Below are positions 3,001 through 56,493 of a stretch of 64,000 nt of DNA, one piece after another. The position numbers were made by a program, and so were the translations under genes. Below the pieces are notes generated by a model. It did no database searches. It was not told the DNA's origin and saw nothing but the letters and a program-made list of their open reading frames with translations. This DNA comes from Escherichia coli (GTDB lineage: Bacteria; Pseudomonadota; Gammaproteobacteria; Enterobacterales; Enterobacteriaceae): assembly GCF_045037415.1 (NCBI RefSeq), contig NZ_CP173438.1; one strand, given 5' to 3'. Every line of letters starts with the position of its first letter. Position 1 is the stretch's first letter.

Positions 3001-5567
3001 CCGCCCATCGCGATAAATTGTCCTTGTGGCCGGAAGGCCCGATAACGGGCGGGGAGGTCAAGCCCGATCCAGTCGCCGGAAAGCATCACTGCGCGCAGGT
3101 TTTCCGGCGTGGCGTCGGCGAAACCTTCACACCAGGTCAGCAGCATATCGAACAGCGCCGGGACGCTGTTCCAGAGCGTGACCTGATGGCGCTGGATCAG
3201 CTCACACCATGCGTGAGGATCGCGCCGTTGATTTTCCATCACCATCACCAGCGCGCCGCCCGCGCGCAGTACGCCAAAAATGTCGTAAACCGATAAATCA
3301 AAATGTAGGGCGGAGAGGGCCAGCACCCTGTCATGCGGGCCAACCTGATAGCGGGTATTGATATCGCAACAGGTGTTAAGCGCTCCCCGGTGAGAAATGA
3401 CTACCCCTTTCGGCGTACCGGTAGAGCCGGAGGTGTAGATAATGTAGGCCGGTTGCGTGGGGGCGCGTACTACCGGGTTGGCGATCGGCTCCGCCTCAAT
3501 GGCCTGCTGCCAGGCAAGGACGGGAATATCGTCTGACCCGGCGCTGGCGTCGTGCTGACAAATGAGCACCAGCCGGACGCTGGCGTCAGCGTAGATTTTC
3601 TCGCGCCGTGCGGCAGGCTGATCCAGCGAAACCGGAACGTAAACCGCCCCAGCCAGCAGGACGGCCAGAACCGCAACAAGTTGTCCTGCACCTTTCGACA
3701 TCGTGATAGCCACATTATCGCCGGGCTGAACCCCGCACTCGATTAACCTGCCCGCGCAACGGCGGGCATAGTCTGTCAGCTCATGATAATTCCACTGATA
3801 ACGCATGTCCGTTACCGCCAGCGCCTGCGGCTGTTGCAGAGCGATACGGAAAATGCCTTCATGCAGCAAGCCTTCGGGAATGGGGGCGCCGGTGGCGTTG
3901 ACCCGTTCGCGTATCGCGCGCTGGCTGGCGGGCATCATATCTGCGAACGGCTTTTGCCAGGCGCTTTCGTCATCGCAGAGTTGGTTAATCAACTGGCAGT
4001 AGGTATCGAACAATGTTTCGACTAACGCCGGAGGGAACAGCGCGTCGTTGCTGTCCCATTGTAGCCAGACCTCGCCGTGATGCTCGAACGCCAGATGATC
4101 TATCCAGACCTGCGGCGTTTGCGAGATGCCCCATTCCGGCTCGCCCAACGGCGATTCTGCGCGGCTGCTGTAGAGGGAACGCCCCAGATTGCTGGTAAAT
4201 ACCACCGGGGCGCCGTGGGGGTAGCGCTGCTGGCGTTTGAGTTCACGGAGTAATTCGACGCCGGACCAGTGGCGATGCTCCCAGTCCTCCGTAAACGTGA
4301 GCTGGTTTTTACGCGCCAGGTTGCTGACGGTATCGCCATCGCAGGCGGTATCCAGCAGAAGAATATTGGTGAAGTCGGCAAGCATCGCGCCAACCGCCGG
4401 GTGCAGCGGCTGGCGGTCGAATAAGGTGATGTTAAGCAGCAGACGCGTCAGGCCGCCCCAGCGAGCCAGCACGGCAGAAAAACAGGTCGCCAGTGCCATT
4501 GTCGGCGTCACGCCATACTCGCCGGCCCGGTTGCTAAAGGCGTGCCAGCGTGTTGCCGGGACAATCATGCGGCGTCGGGTATTACGGACTTCACGTAGCG
4601 TGGCGGGTTCGCAGGCCAGCGGCAAGACGGGCGCGGGGGGAAGCGTCGATGCTTTCGCCAGCCAGTAAGCGCGCGCGTCGTCTCTCAGTGGTTGATTGAT
4701 CTTCTGCTGGTGCAGCAAATACGAGCGGAAATCATAGCGGGTGTCGATAGCCGGCAGCGATTCTCCGGCCAGCAGGGCGTTAAGCTCATCGAAGAAAAGC
4801 GTAAAGCTGGAGGCATCCATAATCAGCAGGTCAATATTGACATGGAGGCGGTGGCGATTGTCCGGCAAGAGCGTCAGCTGAAAATCAAACGTTTCGCCGA
4901 TTTCCACGCGTAAAAGACGGTGGCTCAGGCGCTGGCGCAGTGCGTCCAGATAGGCCTGGCGGCTTTCAGCGTCGTTATGGCGTAAATCATGAACGGTGAC
5001 GCCGTTCCAGTAAGGTTGCGGTAGCCAGACCTGCTGCCCGTCGGGGCGAAAGGCGATATGCAGCATTGGGTGGCGTTGCAGCAAGGTCGTGATGGCCTGC
5101 TCCAGCTGCGACGCCGTCAGACAATGGCCTTCAAACTCCTGATACAGGTGGCAACCCACGCCGCCAAGCGTCTGCCCCGGCATGCGGCCCGTCAGGTAGG
5201 CGTGCTGTACTGGCGTCAATGGGAAGGGGGTACTTTCGGTCATGTTCGGCCAGGATGATTCGTCGGGCGGCGTTTCTTCTTCCGCGTTCTCCGGCGACCG
5301 GCTGAGCATTAACTGGTTCCATGCCGCCAGCGTGGGGGCGGCATACAGCTCGCGAAGGGTAAGGCGGTAGCCATTTTTACGAAACCAGTGTAACCATCTC
5401 ATCAATCTTATGGAATCCAGGCCGGCCTGGATCAGGTTGCTCTCTTCATGTAACTGCTGCGGCGTTAAATTCAGTTCCTGTATGAGCCGCTCGCGTAATT
5501 GTTGGTAATCAGCCGCGTGGCGGTTGTCCGGTAACAGCGAATCCTGAGATGGTGCGCCAGAAATCAT
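1..5567 (-). CDS. irp2: Yersiniabactin nonribosomal peptide synthetase HMWP2, N-terminal part; gene continues beyond window start
   Basis: Minus-strand frame open from window edge to ATG at 5567-5565 with GGAGG upstream; N-terminus [17 protein letters not shown]; very GC-rich; carrier-protein and cyclization/adenylation-type motifs recognised by recall; missing from ORF track because no stop lies in the window; synteny with ybtA/ybtPQXS. Confidence 0.85.
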
Positions 5568-15764: not shown

Positions 15765-15855
15765 GGAGAGATGCCGGAGCGGCTGAACGGACCGGTTCTC
15801 GAAAACCGGAGTGGGGGCAACTCCACCGGGGGTTCAAATCCCCCTCTCTCCGCCA
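15765..15855 (+). tRNA. serU: tRNA-Ser (CGA anticodon region), serU-like, 3' part rebuilt from prophage attachment site
   Basis: 91 nt, GGAGAGA acceptor stem pairing with TCTCTCC, long variable arm, ends CCA; differs from canonical serU as recalled by one extra T in the anticodon loop and a compensatory G/C pair in the variable arm. Confidence 0.75.
15793..15855 (+). repeat. attL core: 63-bp direct repeat (tRNA-Ser 3' segment, phage-type variable arm)
   Basis: Identical to 55886-55948 except two positions (GTGGGGG/CTCCACC here versus GTAGGGG/CTCTACC at attR); identity ends exactly at CCA. Confidence 0.7.
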
Positions 15856-15900
15856 AAATTCAATCACTTACACATCATTAAGTCAGTGACAAAAATCACA

Positions 15901-17194: not shown

Positions 17195-19669
17195 TTAAAA
17201 ATCAGCCTGACTCGGGATCAGTTTTTGCCAGATAGCTGAAACGTATTTTGCCTGGTAACGGGCGTCATCAAGTGCATTATGGCGCTCACCTTCGAATGGA
17301 ATAGCCGTTCTGGCATCGAAGTCTATGGCTTTCCCCAGCTCAACGATTGTGCGTACATCGCGATCGTTGTAGTAACGCCACGGGCAGGGGATCCCCTGCC
17401 GTTCGTATGAACGGCGCAAAATTGTGTTGTCGAAGTTGGCTCCATTTCCCCAGACCTGAACAAAAAATTCACCGGAGTTTTCGTCGATAAATTCCCGCAA
17501 TTGTAACAGTGCATCATCTAACGGGATTTCATCGGTCATAATGGCAGATTGCGCTTCGCGTGATTGCTTAAGCCACCATTTAATGGTGCCACGATCAATG
17601 ACTCCGCCAGCAGTATCCATATCGATGGTCTTACTAAATTCCGGCCCCATATCTCCGGTTTGCGGATCGAAAAATATTGCACCTATTGAGATAAGCGGGG
17701 CATCGGGATTTTTTCCCATGGTTTCAAGGTCGATCATCATGTGGTGCCACATTCTGCTGGTGGATGTGATTTTATGATGACCGTTCATGGTAATTAAGGG
17801 ATTTGCCGTCCCGCCAGCTTCATTATCGCTGGTGTGATGCTGATTACCGCCAGCGTTCTCTTTGTGCGGATATTCAACACGTTCCATTTCCTCCGGATCA
17901 TTTTCCTGAACTTCAACCTGATTCTCTTCATTGAATGTTTCCTGGTATGTTGCGTCACCCATCACCGCGCCACAATCAGGGCAGTTGCCGCCGCCGGTCT
18001 GACCGCAGGCGGTGCAGACTTTTTCCGGTTCCTGTTGCGCTACTGGTTCAGGTTGTTTCGTTTCTGGCTCGTTTTGTAACGCATTTGGGCTGTTTTGTTC
18101 CGCTTTCTGGCCGTTCTGTTCCGTTTCTTGCTGGTTCTGATTCACTGAATCGCGGGTTTCAATCCCCTTCACCCATTTCGGATCATTCGGGTCGCTAATC
18201 CCTGCAACAAATTCACCACGTGATACAGCAAGCAACTTATTGGCGTCAGGCTGGCTGATATTGGCTGCCTGCATAATTTTGTTTACTTCGTCAGCGGTAA
18301 CTTTTATCGGCTCTGGTTGTGCGATCGTGTCAGATGCACCAGTATTTTGTTGTGAACCTGAGTACGTGCCGTTTTTACGTGCGAAGTATTCCTCTTTTGT
18401 GATTTCCGTAGCTCCCAGGGCCAGTGCTTTTTCCAGACCAGAAAGTTTGTTTGCGCGACCGTATTTTTCGCCGTCCTTATCGGTGAAAAGGAAGTAGAAC
18501 GGTCCCTCACGCTCTACAGATGGTTCGTCTTCCACTTCGCATTCGGTTTTTTCGTTGTCCGGCATTGCCGTTTCCACTGCATCAGTTTCTGGTACTGGTG
18601 ACGGGAGAGTACCAGCTGTGCCCTGATTTGTTCCTTCGTCATCTTCAAACACGCCCTTGGTAGTCAGGTATTCAGTGATGTATTTGTTCAGTGCTACGGG
18701 ATCTTTGTGAATGTCGATCGGACGCTCACGGACAAGGCCAAAAATAGTCTGACGGTCGTAGCGAACGGCATCGGGTTGTTTGCGCATTGATGCGGAAATG
18801 CGCTTCCAGTCTTCGCGATCTTTGTCGATAACTTCATTTTTTGCCCAGCGATGGATGCTGCCGTCAATGTTTCCGGTATCAATATCGCCAGGCCAGAGAG
18901 CGTAGGCCAGTTCTTCATCCAGCGTTTTCCATGTCTGCTTGTATTCGCGACAAATGGCGGCAGTGACTGGGTTGATTTTTCCTGCTGAGTTTTCAGTGTT
19001 CTGTTGATTGACTCTGGCGCTGGCGAGATCAACAACAGACGTGTATTTTCCAGTCTCTTTGCGCTCTGCGTCCTGCCGTTTTTTCCAGTTACGTAATTCA
19101 GCCTGAATTTCGGGCCATTTGGCACCCGGATTACATTTGTGTTTAACCCATCCGATAGCGAACAGTTTGCGTTCCGGATACATAGCGTTAATTTCAGGCG
19201 TTTTCATCAGTGCTTCAACGATATGCCCGTCAAAGGTAGCAACGTCTTCCTGCAGTAATTCCTGCGCGTCAATCGCCATATCAACGGTGATGTTTTCACA
19301 TGTACCGAACTTAACCAGGACCGCGTTCTGTACTTCAAGGGACAGCTTGTCAAAATTGACGTTCATCGGATCGGATTCTGGTTCGACCGGAATAAAGGAA
19401 GCGGATTCCTCATCCCAGCGGTTTTCCTGCATATATTCAGCATCCCAGGAATCGAGGGCAGGGCGGGGTATACCGGGTTTATCCTCGCAAACAAGAAATT
19501 TATAAGCGCAGTCCTGAGCAGCCGGATAATGTTCCAGGAATTGCCAGTGAAATTTTGCGCGGGCGCGACGTTCATCACCGGCTTCAATGGCAGTGGCTAC
19601 AGCGACGGCACCTTCTTCCTTTATTGCCTGTTCGTCCGGAATGGCGGCGCAAATAAAGACTTTACTCAT
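17195..19669 (-). CDS. Large phage exonuclease (C-terminal DnaQ-like 3'-5' exonuclease domain, Cys-rich zinc-finger-like segment)
   Basis: 824-aa ORF; C-terminal region with exonuclease-type acidic motifs (MIDLETMG ... HNALDDA); CTACGQTGGGNCPDCG Cys cluster; resembles exodeoxyribonuclease VIII-like prophage proteins. Confidence 0.7.
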   Translation of the reverse strand: MSKVFICAAIPDEQAIKEEGAVAVATAIEAGDERRARAKFHWQFLEHYPAAQDCAYKFLVCEDKPGIPRPALDSWDAEYMQENRWDEESASFIPVEPESDPMNVNFDKLSLEVQNAVLVKFGTCENITVDMAIDAQELLQEDVATFDGHIVEALMKTPEINAMYPERKLFAIGWVKHKCNPGAKWPEIQAELRNWKKRQDAERKETGKYTSVVDLASARVNQQNTENSAGKINPVTAAICREYKQTWKTLDEELAYALWPGDIDTGNIDGSIHRWAKNEVIDKDREDWKRISASMRKQPDAVRYDRQTIFGLVRERPIDIHKDPVALNKYITEYLTTKGVFEDDEGTNQGTAGTLPSPVPETDAVETAMPDNEKTECEVEDEPSVEREGPFYFLFTDKDGEKYGRANKLSGLEKALALGATEITKEEYFARKNGTYSGSQQNTGASDTIAQPEPIKVTADEVNKIMQAANISQPDANKLLAVSRGEFVAGISDPNDPKWVKGIETRDSVNQNQQETEQNGQKAEQNSPNALQNEPETKQPEPVAQQEPEKVCTACGQTGGGNCPDCGAVMGDATYQETFNEENQVEVQENDPEEMERVEYPHKENAGGNQHHTSDNEAGGTANPLITMNGHHKITSTSRMWHHMMIDLETMGKNPDAPLISIGAIFFDPQTGDMGPEFSKTIDMDTAGGVIDRGTIKWWLKQSREAQSAIMTDEIPLDDALLQLREFIDENSGEFFVQVWGNGANFDNTILRRSYERQGIPCPWRYYNDRDVRTIVELGKAIDFDARTAIPFEGERHNALDDARYQAKYVSAIWQKLIPSQADF

Positions 19670-19748
19670 TTTGTTTTACCTCATTACAGATTTAAGGGTG
19701 AACAAATCCCTGCCATTGCTGGCATATAAAAATGAAACTGGATATTAA

Positions 19749-19958
19749 TTACGGCGCTGTTTTTAATCCTGCCGGGATTTCGTTATTGTCCATGTGAATA
19801 ACTTTATCGACCGGATAACAGTTGCCGGGAATTTTCTGTTCCGCTGCGGCAGCCATGCATTCTTTCATTGAGTTGTACATGCCGGTGATTGCATCAAGCG
19901 ACTCACCAGTATTGAGATATACAGTCAGAATGAGTATGAATAATGTGTTCATCGCCAC
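19749..19958 (-). CDS. Small hypothetical protein with N-terminal hydrophobic segment (AT-rich)
   Basis: 69-aa ORF, low GC, hydrophobic N-terminus LFILILTVYL; no family assigned. Confidence 0.35.
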   Translation of the reverse strand: MAMNTLFILILTVYLNTGESLDAITGMYNSMKECMAAAAEQKIPGNCYPVDKVIHMDNNEIPAGLKTAP

Positions 19959-20137
19959 TCTCCGAAAATACCGAGTTTAAGAAGGGCAATTCTGGAGAGT
20001 ATGGAATTGTCATTCAGCAGGTAGGGTTCATATTTTCTCATATTGATTGCATCCTCGGTGAAATCCCTGTTACTGAGCAGAACACCAATATTAAAGCACC
20101 CGTCAGACGTATTAACGTTTGGTAGTGACGTTTCCAT
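19949..20137 (-). CDS. Small hypothetical protein (AT-rich)
   Basis: 62-aa ORF in AT-rich stretch between exonuclease and rha; no family assigned. Confidence 0.3.
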   Translation of the reverse strand: METSLPNVNTSDGCFNIGVLLSNRDFTEDAINMRKYEPYLLNDNSILSRIALLKLGIFGEWR

Positions 20138-20147
20138 TATCGCGTCC

Positions 20148-20705
20148 TCAACAATGAATTTTTAGCAATTGCTCCACAGTCATATTTTTAATTGCGCTCC
20201 GGTTTACAAGAGTCCATCCTTGTTTCTCCAGATAAAACCGGAAGGTATCCAGGGTGCAGACCATTGCGCCGTCAGGAACGGTTTCAGTGAATTTGATATT
20301 GCCGTGTTCGTCGAGACGGATAACCAGGGTGCGTCCGTCCCCGTGAATCATTTTGTCGGGAGACGGGGCGTTATTCTGGCGCAGTTCTTCCTCCATGCGA
20401 TCGAACTCAGCGATGTAGGCTTCTTTGAAAGTTGCGGCTTTTTTACCTGTGAACCCCATCACCAGGAAAACGAAGCCGTTTTTGGTGATTTGGTACATTG
20501 GGAGTTTGCGCCCGGTTGAGTCGGTGTATTCGCTCGACACAAAATTGTGCTCAGTGAATTTTGCTGAACAGTCCAGATTGCGAATTTTATCCAACACTCG
20601 TTCGTGGCGTTTGCCAAAGAACTCGGCGATCGCAACAGACGTAGTGACAGCGCGACCATTTTCGATGGTTACGTCAGGGTGAGAAAGGGTAAGGATAGTA
20701 GCCAT
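20148..20705 (-). CDS. Rha-family phage regulatory protein (antirepressor-like)
   Basis: Rha-type N-terminal motif VTTSVAIAEFFGKRHERVLDKIRNL; start set at the internal ATG preceded by GGAGG (20705) rather than the track start at 21002. Confidence 0.6.
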   Translation of the reverse strand: MATILTLSHPDVTIENGRAVTTSVAIAEFFGKRHERVLDKIRNLDCSAKFTEHNFVSSEYTDSTGRKLPMYQITKNGFVFLVMGFTGKKAATFKEAYIAEFDRMEEELRQNNAPSPDKMIHGDGRTLVIRLDEHGNIKFTETVPDGAMVCTLDTFRFYLEKQGWTLVNRSAIKNMTVEQLLKIHC

Positions 20706-20873
20706 GATGGCAGCCTCCGCGATGAATTTGATTAACTCACCACCGAGGTTTTCCACGACCATAAGGGTGGTGAGACGTACAGGGGTGGAAATACCGGTCA
20801 TCACGGAACCCGGCCAGCCTTGCGGCTGCCCTGCACGCCCCACCATAATGCGAATGTGGCTGTGCTTAACGCA

Positions 20874-20898
20874 TAAAAAAACCGCCTGAGCGCGGTTA
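20874..20898 (-). terminator. Rho-independent terminator (minus strand) upstream of rha
   Basis: On minus strand AACCGC-GCTCAG-GCGGTT followed by TTTTTTTAT. Confidence 0.45.
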
Positions 20899-21540
20899 TG
20901 CGCCGTGAATGATTTCGGGTTTCCACGCCCGGCACCCGTTTTATGAGGTGCAGGTGCACTATAATTCCACCCGTTCTGGTTTTCAATAGCTACATTCAAC
21001 ATTTTCTCTACCTTTCATCACCGAAGTGAACTTTGTTGATGCGGTGCCTGGTGCCTCCAGGTGACGTTAACCAGTTAACAATTAACGCCGGATACAGAGA
21101 ATCCACCCATAACACTGTTTTTGGTTTTAACTGTTCCGCGTGCGCTTAGCCGCATTCACCGCATCACAAAATTCACTTTAAAAAGGGCGGCAGAGCAGTC
21201 ACGGAGTAGAACTGATACCGCCAAAAGTCACCAGAAAATTGATAACAGAGGGCGTTGCAGCGGGGTTGTCACTTAAGCGTATGGTCAACCTGACAACCCG
21301 GTGTCCTCAACGGGGGAAGGAATAACCCCGCCATACTTACCGCCGCGCCATTTCGCGGATTGCCACAACCGGAAGCGCACGGTCGACGAAAATTTAACGA
21401 CTACCTACAGAGAGACGAACTTCGCCGTGCGCTTTCGCGTTATGCCCTGACTTTTCAGGGATATATCCTTTTCAGTAAACTGTCAGTGCCGGATTCTTAT
21501 CCGTGTCCGGCGCACGCACTCTACCTCACCTGTGAATAAA

Positions 21541-21927
21541 TTAATGATTAATTGATATTTTGTTGTTTGATTCAACTTTCCCATCGGATGTGTGATGCTT
21601 TAAATCACAGGAATTAATACTGCTTGCTGTAAAATGATTTTCAAGGGGAGCTATTCGAATCCCTTTCTTTTTCATTAACAAGCCAAATCCTTTATTAATG
21701 ATGTCCATTAATTCCAGGAAGTATTTTTCATGTAAATCCTGGTTATCAGAGAGCTGCTTCTCTTCGCACAGACCGATAAAGGCACGACGAACGTTACCGG
21801 ATATAGTATCGATGGTTTCTTTTTCTACGGTACTCAGGTCAAGAGTCGCCAGTTGGGAACGAACTATATTCGCTGCCATTTCCTGGAATGGTACTGGTAA
21901 ATCTTTAAATTCCATCGTCAACCTCAT
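21541..21927 (-). CDS. Hypothetical phage early protein
   Basis: 128-aa ORF in early-left operon, coupled by one-base overlap to the upstream ORF; no family assigned. Confidence 0.4.
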   Translation of the reverse strand: MRLTMEFKDLPVPFQEMAANIVRSQLATLDLSTVEKETIDTISGNVRRAFIGLCEEKQLSDNQDLHEKYFLELMDIINKGFGLLMKKKGIRIAPLENHFTASSINSCDLKHHTSDGKVESNNKISINH

Positions 21928-22133
21928 CAGTCAGTGTTTCTGGTTAACCAGCGACGCGCGCCAGCTTCAGTTTTAAACGTTTTGCTTCTGGTATACGTCA
22001 TCGCGGTAAACGTGCCGTCCTGGTTGGGAAACACGCCGCATACCAGAGATTCGTTGTTGCCAAGATCGATAGTATCCATGCTGACCTCATTTCCCCTTAA
22101 CGCCAGGGTAGCGGAACTGTTTGCTGAGAACAC
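21927..22133 (-). CDS. Hypothetical phage early protein
   Basis: 68-aa ORF, first gene leftward of the immunity region. Confidence 0.35.
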   Translation of the reverse strand: MFSANSSATLALRGNEVSMDTIDLGNNESLVCGVFPNQDGTFTAMTYTRSKTFKTEAGARRWLTRNTD

Positions 22134-22158
22134 CGTGCGGTGTCTTGATGAGTAGAAT

Positions 22159-22172
22159 TTAGAATAATCTAA
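22159..22172. promoter_or_regulatory. Putative operator TTAGAATAATCTAA (TTAG-N6-CTAA palindrome), left operator
   Basis: Same 14-bp palindromic pattern as two sites in the repressor/cro intergenic region. Confidence 0.4.
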
Positions 22173-22286
22173 GAATTGTGGTCAAGCTTTTTGTGTAGAA
22201 AAACCTAAGTTTTTTTGATGTAAAAAACACAATCATTTGAAAGTTTGTGCTTTTTATTACAGAGAGTGGCGAAAAAAAAGGGGGGG

Positions 22287-22694
22287 TTATTTATTTGCGC
22301 TTCTTTTGCGAGCTTTGAGTAGTTCTTCAAAAAGTTTGTTGAAATTCTCAACTCGAGCACGCATCTCTGACAACAGAGCCTTTTGCTCTGACTCAGGCAG
22401 TGCGTCGAACAGTTGAAGCAACTCTTTTTGATCTTCTGTCAGATTAACTGGCTGATTATCTGGGATCGGTTCGCCTGGTTGCTTATCTTCATCTCCAAAA
22501 AGAAGCCAAGTCGGCGAGCACTGAAGCGCCTGGCTCAGTGCGAATAATCTCTTCCCCGCTGGCTGTGTTTCATCTCTTTCCCATTGAGAAATTGTTACGT
22601 GAGCCACTTTGACCAGCTTACCTAATGCGGCCTGAGACAGTTTTAATTTTTTACGCCTGTATAAGAGGCGAGCACCGAAGGTTTCGTTTTTCAT
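22287..22694 (-). CDS. Phage repressor, XRE/CI-type helix-turn-helix
   Basis: 135-aa ORF; N-terminal HTH SQAALGKLVKVAHVTISQWERDETQP; divergent from a Cro-like gene. Confidence 0.75.
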   Translation of the reverse strand: MKNETFGARLLYRRKKLKLSQAALGKLVKVAHVTISQWERDETQPAGKRLFALSQALQCSPTWLLFGDEDKQPGEPIPDNQPVNLTEDQKELLQLFDALPESEQKALLSEMRARVENFNKLFEELLKARKRSANK

Positions 22695-22770: not shown

Positions 22771-22998
22771 ATGTTGAAAATTGATGCTATAGCGTTTTTT
22801 GGCAGCAAAACAAAGCTTGCCAATGCCGCAGGAGTTAGGCTGGCAAGCGTTGCTGCATGGGGGAAACTGGTTCCTGAAGGTCGCGCGATGCGTCTACAGG
22901 AGGCATCCGGCGGGGAACTTCAGTACGACCCCAAAGTTTATGACGAATATCGTAAGGCAAAGCGGGCGGGGCGGTTGAACAATGAAAATCACCCCTGA
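22771..22998 (+). CDS. Cro-like / YdaS-like small DNA-binding protein
   Basis: 75-aa ORF divergent from repressor with GGAG RBS; first gene of rightward early operon. Confidence 0.6.
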   Translation: MLKIDAIAFFGSKTKLANAAGVRLASVAAWGKLVPEGRAMRLQEASGGELQYDPKVYDEYRKAKRAGRLNNENHP

Positions 22999-28553: not shown

Positions 28554-28755
28554 ATACAGCGAACGCCATTGGTTTAGTTGGATATTTACTGTGCCGGACA
28601 AAAACGGTTTGCGGGGAAATCTTAGTTAAGTAGAATAACTGCGGGTGCTTGAGGCTATCTGTCTCAGGCATGAACACCAAAAGGCAGATAGAGAAAAGCC
28701 CCAGTTAACATTACGCGTCCTGCAAGACGCTTAACATTAATCTGAGGCCATATCT

Positions 28756-28815
28756 ATGCGACACATAGAGATTAGCCTCTTACGGACCGAAAGGTCAAGG
28801 AGAAGCAGGCTATGA
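28756..28815 (+). other. Short leader ORF (19 codons) ending in TGA overlapping the hok-like start; mok-like coupling frame
   Basis: ATG 28756, stop TGA 28813-28815 overlapping ATG 28812. Confidence 0.3.
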
Positions 28816-28967
28816 AGCAGCAAAAGGCGATGTTAATCGCCCTGATCGTCATCTGTTTAACCGTCATAGTGACGGCACTGGTAACGAGGAAAGACCTCTG
28901 CGAGGTACGAATCCGAACCGGCCAGACGGAGGTCGCTGTCTTCACAGCTTACGAACCTGAGGAGTAA
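28812..28967 (+). CDS. hok: Hok/Gef-family type I toxin (51 aa)
   Basis: MKQQKAMLIALIVICLTVIVTALVTRKDLCEVRIRTGQTEVAVFTAYEPEE: single TM helix plus conserved C-terminal Hok motif; GGAGAAG RBS region. Confidence 0.85.
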   Translation: MKQQKAMLIALIVICLTVIVTALVTRKDLCEVRIRTGQTEVAVFTAYEPEE

Positions 28968-29035
28968 AGAACCCGGCGAGGGATAAATCCCTCGCCACCT
29001 CTGATGTGGCAGGCATCCTCAACGCACCCGCACTT

Positions 29036-29183: not shown

Positions 29184-29435
29184 ATGATGAACATCGAAGA
29201 ACTGCGTAAAATTTTTTGTGAAGATGGCCTCTATGCTGTGTGCGTTGAAAATGGAAATATTGTTAGTCATTACCGCATTGTGTGTTTGCAAAAAAATGGG
29301 GCTGCGTTAATTAATTTTGTGGATGCCCGAGTGACGGACGGATTTATCTTGCGCGACGGTGAGTTTGTCACTTCATTACAGGTATTGAAAGAGATCGGAA
29401 TAAAAGCTGGGTTTTCTGCTTTTTCAGAAGAATAA
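29184..29435 (+). CDS. Hypothetical protein
   Basis: 83-aa ORF. Confidence 0.4.
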   Translation: MMNIEELRKIFCEDGLYAVCVENGNIVSHYRIVCLQKNGAALINFVDARVTDGFILRDGEFVTSLQVLKEIGIKAGFSAFSEE

Positions 29436-55885: not shown

Positions 55886-55948
55886 CGGTTCTCGAAAACC
55901 GGAGTAGGGGCAACTCTACCGGGGGTTCAAATCCCCCTCTCTCCGCCA
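55886..55948 (+). repeat. attR core: 63-bp direct repeat carrying the host-type tRNA-Ser 3' segment
   Basis: Matches 15793-15855 with two mismatches; variable arm here matches canonical serU as recalled. Confidence 0.7.
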
Positions 55949-56493
55949 CTTTATCAATGACTTATCTCCCGACTTCCCGCCTTGCTTTTCCTAAACAGAA
56001 CAATCGTAGGATATTCTTGAAGGGTTAGATCGTCACTGTTTTCTGTTCGATACTGTGACATTCAGCACTTGATTCGCTATGGGTCTGACAGGAAGGTTTC
56101 GAGCGAAAATCTACAGTTATTCAGTCGTTTTCTTATCGGTCACCATTATTCTTTTAGACATTGATCCTATGAAACTGCCGCAAAGTTGCTGGCGGGAACT
56201 GAAGTTGCGTAGAGAAGGGGTCAATAATTGAGCCAAAAAAGGAACGCGGCCGTCAGATTAAAGCCGCGGGACAAAGTCCATAATTTCCAAGAGTTGTTGA
56301 ATTTCCCAGCTTTTTTGAAAGCCTTTGTATCATACTAACAAGTAAAAAAGGTTTAAACACCAAAATTAACCTATATTTCTGGTTAGCTTTACCATGACAG
56401 ATGACTTGCTCCTGGAGACATTTGCGCTGCCAGTCTGTATGGCTGAGTTGTGTATTTATTGTTCGCCTTTTTCTCAGTTTTTTTCTACAGACA

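Follow-up and report, generated by a model that had tools for sequence, protein, structure and literature searches.

A putative Qin-type dicB-ydfD gene pair in the leftward early operon of an Escherichia coli lambdoid prophage

Lambda Kil and Rac KilR are division inhibitors encoded in early-left operons, and they produce a transient division block upon prophage derepression. Two small open reading frames occupy a comparable position in the window, the 64,000-nucleotide stretch of the E. coli contig NZ_CP173438.1 analysed here as a whole, and raise the question of what they encode. An initial annotation, made from the sequence letters, had assigned them to no recognisable family and had guessed at a kil- or exclusion-type function. 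In our view the locus is very probably the dicB-ydfD pair belonging to a dicBF operon of Qin type, on a lambdoid prophage of about 40 kb that seems complete and lies at tRNA-Ser. The feature is an ordinary and already known one: both families are described, the K-12 orthologues have been studied and RefSeq has names on identical DNA. In place of "no recognisable family", the labels should read dicB and ydfD-type gene. A modest interest attaches to the behaviour of the EHEC-type DicB as compared with K-12 DicB, and to the effect of IsrK-C4-Rha on the timing of the toxic pair.

Two small genes on the minus strand

Both frames announced by the initial annotation are present on the minus strand between the exonuclease and Rha-family genes (Table 1), in the leftward early operon of a lambdoid prophage as it had stated. 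The length of 62 aa given for the upstream frame was confirmed. For the downstream frame, the length of 69 aa applies only if translation begins at a GTG (19749-19958 in the ORF list). The dicB stop codon TGA (19951-19949) overlaps an ATG (19952-19950), forming an ATGA at 19949-19952. Because of this overlap, of the length of 204 nt (67 aa) given to the downstream gene by RefSeq, and of the same overlap in K-12 dicB/ydfD, the start is likely to be ATG 19952 (67 aa) rather than GTG 19958 (69 aa). The plus-strand ORFs 19822-19980 and 19943-20125 were also considered as coding and were rejected, the dN/dS values, family matches and conservation all sitting in the minus-strand frames.

The GC content of the 389-bp region is 42.9%, for a window mean of 50.9% (SD 6.8% in 389-bp windows). 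What had been called a low-GC island is therefore below the mean, but only mildly so: it falls at the 15th percentile, and lower stretches are found close by at 21500-21800 and 22100-22400. On the same ground, low GC was rejected as the mark of a separate foreign origin.

Table 1. Coordinates of the gene pair and of the neighbouring features in the window, with the evidence for each.
Feature	Position	Strand	Evidence
Exonuclease gene, 824 aa, downstream of ydfD	17195..19669	-	PF16473 (Rv2179c-like domain), E=3.2e-66
dicB-ydfD ORF pair	19749-20137	-	ORF list
ydfD-type gene (DUF1482), 67 aa from ATG	19749..19952	-	PF07358, PHROG 1092, RefSeq
dicB, 62-aa cell-division inhibitor, EHEC/PPompW-type allele	19949..20137	-	PF05358, NF049927, RefSeq; ORF list
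dicB Shine-Dalgarno GAGGA	20145..20149	-	7 nt before ATG; overlaps rha stop codon; sequence reading
rha-family regulator/antirepressor-like gene, 185 aa from ATG 20705	20148..20705	-	PF09669, E=4.7e-31; TIGR02681
isrK-C4-rha segment, 864 bp, absent from K-12 Qin	20163..21026	-	blastn vs Qin
C4 antisense RNA	20763..20850	-	Rfam RF01695, 81.9 bits (gathering 45)
IsrK sRNA	20875..20951	-	Rfam RF01394, 67.7 bits (gathering 50)
IsrK terminator	20897-20880	-	flanks isrK
isrK promoter-like site TTGAAA-17-TATAGT	20986-20958	-	consensus scan
DicF sRNA	21185..21236	-	Rfam RF00039, 71.5 bits (gathering 48), full length
dicBp-like promoter TTGACC-18-TAAATT, between dicA and ydfA	22156..22185	-	consensus scan
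dicA-like repressor, 135 aa	22287..22694	-	63% to K-12 DicA over 131 aa, E=6e-62
dicC/cro-like regulator	22771..22998	+	RefSeq "Cro/CI family transcriptional regulator"; divergent from dicA as in K-12

Contrary to the statement that no family could be recognised, both ORFs match curated Pfam families above the gathering score. The upstream product matches PF05358 over residues 1-60 of 62 (E=1.3e-32, 111.7 bits for a cut-off of 27) and passes the NCBIfam model NF049927, "cell division inhibition protein DicB", by a narrow margin (103.4 bits, cut-off 100). Identical DNA in RefSeq is named dicB (WP_000450218.1). The gene also has the size of the family (about 62 aa) and its genomic setting, downstream of DicF in a leftward operon with a DicA/DicC switch, with an 864-bp rha module in between. 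Its Shine-Dalgarno stretch aligns with the K-12 dicB leader.

Compared with DicB of the K-12 cryptic prophage Qin, also called Kim (b1575, PF05358), the window protein is 64% identical over a 55-residue BLASTP alignment (E=1e-22) and 58% over all 62 residues. It is 85% identical to DicB of the PPompW prophage, as against 58-63% to the K-12 type. The two proteins share their length of 62 aa and nearly identical N-terminal 35 residues, and their genes share a slot downstream of DicF in a DicA-repressed operon and the ATGA overlap with ydfD. In an alignment of seven sequences, residues 1-35 are almost invariant across alleles and the divergence all lies after residue 35. The N-terminus, METSLPNVNTSDGC in the window and MKTLLPNVNTSEGC in K-12, is identical at 11 of 14 positions and is not truncated; like mEp460 and other alleles, the window protein has E as residue 2. 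In contrast, the C-terminal half is rewritten (EPYLLNDNSILSRIALLKLGIFGEWR in the window, ERELLNKICIVSMLARLRLMPKGCAQ in K-12) and is acidic instead of basic, with a net charge of the protein of -2 as compared with +3. The alleles fall into two discrete groups, with no intermediates among the seven aligned sequences, and the window allele belongs to the EHEC PPompW-type group. This pattern of conservation fits the reported properties of DicB, whose N-terminus (first ~14 residues) is essential and needed for strong MinC binding, and whose C-terminal 8 aa are dispensable (PMC4967827).

A DicB of the EHEC/PPompW type could nevertheless have kept the fold and changed its partners or its output, excluding other phages or no longer targeting ZipA, in which case the K-12 mechanism would not be transferable. 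The extent of the divergence past residue 35 and the change of charge would agree with this, as would the NCBIfam score barely past the cut-off and the gap between the two allele groups; our literature search found no published test of an allele of this type. We consider such a change quite unlikely, since the almost invariant residues 1-35 include the 14 reported to be critical for MinC interaction and activity, and since the allele keeps its operon slot, its length and its coupling to ydfD, with a dN/dS of about 0.2 that indicates a maintained function.

RefSeq additionally reports a partial DicB pseudogene ("DicB, incomplete") at 21032-21115 on the minus strand. This is a translation of the leader (VLWVDSLYPALIVNWLTSPGGTRHRINK), which matches the N-terminal extension of an over-long mEp460 DicB. 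It was rejected as a second dicB, being translated dicB leader; it is an annotation artefact, and marks the left edge of the rha insertion described below. A search of solved structures found none for DicB or the YdfD homologue, the lone match (E=0.06) being noise.

The downstream product matches PF07358 over all profile positions (1-57 of 57; E=3.5e-19, 68.9 bits for a gathering score of 25) and PHROG 1092 (E=1e-35), a family listed by PHROGs as "unknown function". Identical DNA in RefSeq is labelled "DUF1482 family protein" (WP_021562668.1). The protein is 65% identical (E=3e-33) to K-12 YdfD of Qin (b1576, PF07358), annotated "lysis protein". Common to both are the hydrophobic N-terminal segment, the core EQKIPGNCYPVDKVIH...NEIPAGL, both cysteines and the coupled position directly downstream of dicB. 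The hydrophobic N-terminus noticed in the initial annotation belongs to this ORF (TLFILILTVYL, Kyte-Doolittle mean 2.59 over 11 residues). The hydrophobic peak covers residues 3-13, and the conserved core, with C32 and C45, comes after it; over 19 residues the N-terminal segment is less hydrophobic than in K-12 (Kyte-Doolittle mean 1.42 vs 2.00). Masuda et al. are said to have described YdfD, in 2016, as a hydrophobic N-terminal stretch of about 22 residues followed by a soluble C-terminal domain. A hydrophobic N-terminus of ~22 residues with a conserved soluble C-terminal domain likewise figures in the description cited in PMC8835842.

The two homologues differ at their ends, ...AGLKTAP (67 aa) in the window vs ...AGL (63 aa) in K-12, that is by four extra residues, KTAP. 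Natural C-termini in the YdfD family are AG, AGF, AGL and AGLKTAP. The KTAP variant is common to prophages of the strains APEC O1, TD225-C4 and 120899, and the 67-aa KTAP form occurs in other prophages with 81% amino-acid identity and under purifying selection. Because of this recurrence under purifying selection, the extension is probably a tolerated natural variant. Its position may be of some consequence, as deletion of the last residue of K-12 YdfD, or the substitution L63A, weakened lysis (PMC8835842).

The requirement for an intact C-terminus in K-12 is one of the arguments for a different view, that the DUF1482 protein is here neither a lysis protein nor an IspG inhibitor but plays some other part as a small early protein associated with the membrane. 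For lysis the prophage can rely on a holin/endolysin/spanin cassette of its own, the ydfD-type gene lies in the early-left operon outside this late lysis cassette, and PHROGs assigns no function to the family. Given the 65% identity to K-12 YdfD with conserved core and cysteines, and the recurrence of the KTAP form, we hold this other role to be unlikely, and retain a YdfD-type product as the preferred reading.

The dN/dS ratios were obtained from five comparators: K-12, mEp460, vB_EcoS-689R5 and the prophages of TD225-C4 and 120899. Both genes gave values of 0.18-0.27 (0.18-0.25 for dicB) at dS of 0.5-2.2, and this purifying selection indicates that they are far more than chance ORFs. The ATGA overlap is also annotated in K-12, mEp460, vB_EcoS-689R5 and other prophages (K-12 and five other loci). 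The initial annotation had proposed conservation across related prophages as a check, and a lack of conservation is not what we observed: the 389-bp region has megablast matches in 1331 of 5426 complete E. coli genomes, and queries containing dicB with its flanks match 3811-4324 of them. Positions 19600-20300 of the window are 100% identical in many RefSeq E. coli chromosomes, where the labels read "DUF1482 family protein", dicB, "Rha family phage regulatory protein" and exonuclease. Among phage sequences, 22 records contain the pair, and in 8 of these the match extends over most of the query. Viable lambdoid phages that carry it include mEp460, Tritos, HannyBb and vB_Eco isolates, with the exonuclease gene again next to it. 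A survey of 2016 reported no DicB/DicF match among about 2,000 phage genomes (PMC5069750), an absence that no longer holds. The dicBF genes, usually called a relic of cryptic prophages, are found here in a seemingly complete prophage as well as in viable phages.

These observations bear on the possibility that the two frames arose by chance in an AT-rich spacer, or are what is left, decaying and unexpressed, of a cryptic prophage. The K-12 dicBF operon is indeed silent in standard laboratory conditions (PMC10448788), and two terminators lie between dicBp and dicB. The frames are however intact, with a Shine-Dalgarno sequence and ATGA coupling, and dN/dS stays at about 0.2 for dS up to 2; the pair occurs in viable phages, and around it lies a prophage whose integrase is intact and whose modules for replication, lysis and morphogenesis are full. 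Decay or chance is accordingly most improbable.

Operon layout and the isrK-C4-rha segment

The locus is syntenic with K-12 Qin, in the order dicC / dicA - ydfA - DicF - dicB - ydfD - ydfE/exonuclease. In K-12, dicBp is located between dicA and ydfA, and this intergenic region can be aligned with the -35 box of the dicBp-like site and with the transcribed leader. A ydfA homologue (DUF1391) is located between the dicBp-like site and DicF. DicF itself sits within a block 93% identical to K-12. At the other end, homology to K-12 extends past ydfD into the start of the exonuclease gene, corresponding to K-12 ydfE, which is a truncated remnant of the 824-aa exonuclease. Other prophages, and mEp460, likewise have the exonuclease gene after ydfD. 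The K-12 locus is part of a 20-kb remnant, whereas dicB of the window lies in an apparently complete prophage and is parted from DicF by the rha module.

Between the ydfA homologue and DicF, in the place of ydfB/ydfC, there is a 128-aa ORF (21541-21927, minus strand) that RefSeq annotates as hypothetical. It gave no family match, with just a sub-threshold hit to Pfam VLPT.

On the plus strand, rem (29184-29435) and hokD/sok (28643-28967) are present as in Qin, the latter as a type I toxin-antitoxin with sok at 106.7 bits in Rfam and a HokD ORF of 51 aa. Because rem, the antirepressor of DicA in K-12, is also encoded, the full known dicBF control circuit is found on the prophage.

Comparison with Qin by blastn gave two matches, 21534-21027 at 93% (dicF region and dicB leader) and 20162-19600 at 76% (dicB-ydfD-ydfE), which adjoin in K-12 with an overlap of 8 bp (3585-3592). 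Since the K-12 matches meet, the 864 bp between them (20163-21026) were inserted, at a point some 25 nt ahead of the dicB start codon. The region of the ORF pair can moreover be seen as a distinct mosaic segment, given its identity to Qin of 76% next to an upstream neighbour at 93%. Alignment of the junction shows that the native dicB leader supplies the last codons and the stop codon of rha. This rha-dicB junction was found in 264 of the 5426 complete E. coli genomes (about 5%).

RefSeq/PGAP annotates rha as a 284-aa ORF (20148-21002, minus strand), the first ~100 codons of which cross the IsrK and C4 RNA genes. The sequence GGAGG is found 8 nt before ATG 20705, and the Rha domain starts about 20 residues after this codon. 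As the long ORF crosses RNA genes, and as ATG 20705 with its GGAGG precedes the domain, the RefSeq start is probably too far upstream.

The DicF and IsrK terminators are located between dicBp and dicB, and there is no terminator between rha and dicB. For this reason, dicB and ydfD are probably also the distal genes of a read-through transcript from the isrK promoter. The inserted module can be likened to the c4-icd-ant immI module of P1/P7. It resembles the isrK-orf45-anrP locus of Salmonella Gifsy-1: in both, an IsrK sRNA that has a promoter and a terminator to itself is followed by a structured leader and then by a Rha/antirepressor-like gene (PMC4825925). In Gifsy-1 the isrJ terminator comes next, whereas the module of the window is embedded in the dicBF operon and is followed by dicB-ydfD; isrJ was not detected in the window by the Rfam search. 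It is conceivable, if unlikely, that splicing of isrK-C4-rha 25 nt upstream of dicB rewires the toxic pair to the IsrK/C4 switch and that, together with the rewritten acidic DicB, it makes a functionally distinct cassette for division block and exclusion, with other triggers and perhaps other targets.

Proposed mode of action and comparison with Kil

In K-12, DicA represses dicBp, relief of repression being stochastic or due to stress or Rem, and RNase III and RNase E process DicF out of a polycistronic RNA (PMC10448788). By analogy, the DicA-like repressor would hold the leftward dicBp-like promoter off in a lysogen. Derepression, whether stochastic, under stress or by the prophage-encoded Rem, would lead to transcription of the operon, with DicF being processed out. 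DicF represses ftsZ translation (PMC6832061), and its counterpart in the window would be expected to lower ftsZ translation likewise.

K-12 DicB brings MinC to the septum via ZipA, where the Z ring is depolymerised, and inhibits ManYZ, giving ~100-fold resistance to lambda-type phages (PMC6832061). If its homologue behaves in the same way, it would bind MinC and target it to the septal ring via ZipA, so that the Z ring would be broken up and filamentation would follow. Also in a MinC-dependent manner, it would shut ManYZ and thereby prevent both mannose uptake and the entry of lambda-type phage DNA; this putative exclusion activity is transferred from the K-12 literature.

YdfD of K-12 is a toxic lysis protein whose division-dependent lysis is blocked by co-expression of DicB or SulA (PMC8835842). 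It binds IspG, and overexpression of ispG or the IspG product rescues the cells (PMC8835842); the IspG mechanism comes from this single study. In the window, translation of ydfD would be coupled to that of dicB and would yield a small membrane-associated protein, predicted to bind IspG, to block the MEP isoprenoid pathway and to lyse dividing cells. Because lysis needs active division, DicB would mask it. The ATGA overlap points to synthesis of YdfD only together with DicB, and in proportion to it, lysis being masked during the division block.

The guess of a kil- or exclusion-type gene was right in kind as far as DicB is concerned, but neither protein gave a Kil-family match in Pfam at E<=0.1. 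A leftward early operon is a kil-like position and the class of phenotype is the same, a division block, as one would expect of ORFs that belong to the lambda Kil family; the other possibility raised was a catalogued anti-phage defence system. At E<=0.1, Pfam returned just DicB and DUF1482, each protein being fully covered by its own family, and PADLOC-DB v2 gave no match for dicB, ydfD or rha at the same threshold. A Kil or catalogued defence identity is therefore extremely improbable, and in the absence of any Kil match DicB and the YdfD homologue are placed outside the lambda Kil family. Likeness of dicB to lambda Kil and Rac KilR is one of genomic niche and phenotype class, the difference being the lack of a sequence relationship in Pfam searches. 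The route to the division block is also different: lambda Kil acts on FtsZ via ZipA and independently of MinC (PMC3961180), whereas DicB works through MinC (PMC6832061). By what its K-12 orthologue does, DicB would be a functional analogue of lambda Kil, as a small division inhibitor.

The prophage and its attachment site

The prophage is about 40 kb long (~15793-55964), and a 79-bp repeat derived from the 3' part of tRNA-Ser marks its two ends, at 15793-15870 and 55886-55964. The prophage modules cover replication, the Q region, holin/endolysin, terminase, head and contractile tail, with a P27-family small terminase, HK97-type head genes and Mu-like baseplate/contractile-tail genes; the lysis genes encode a lambda-family holin, a GH24 endolysin and a lysis protein. 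The integrase (341 aa) is intact in the window and is flagged as frameshifted in the RefSeq twin. From its gene content the prophage is apparently complete.

Over 49.9 kb the window shares 99.98% identity with E. coli Ecol_AZ146. Relative to NZ_CP018991.1 (99.98% identical), single-base indels were observed at four of the five GGTCTC/GAGACC (Eco31I/BsaI) sites of the reference, at positions 15797, 28968-28970, 43844 and 55890, the site at 45093 being kept; four other differences between the two sequences lie away from such sites. The motif is strongly under-represented: it occurs once in the window and five times over the 49.9 kb of the reference, where base composition predicts ~32 per 64 kb. 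The indels look like a base-calling error that recurs systematically at a methylated motif, or like a deliberate removal of the sites.

One such extra base falls in the anticodon loop (GGTTCTCGAAAACC) of the tRNA-Ser that serves as attachment site (15765-15855, plus strand). Because of it, ARAGORN assigns no anticodon to this tRNA, which was also not reported by Rfam at the gathering threshold. The extra base is probably a sequence error and not biology. The partial tRNA-Ser copy at 55886-55964 has the same extra T.
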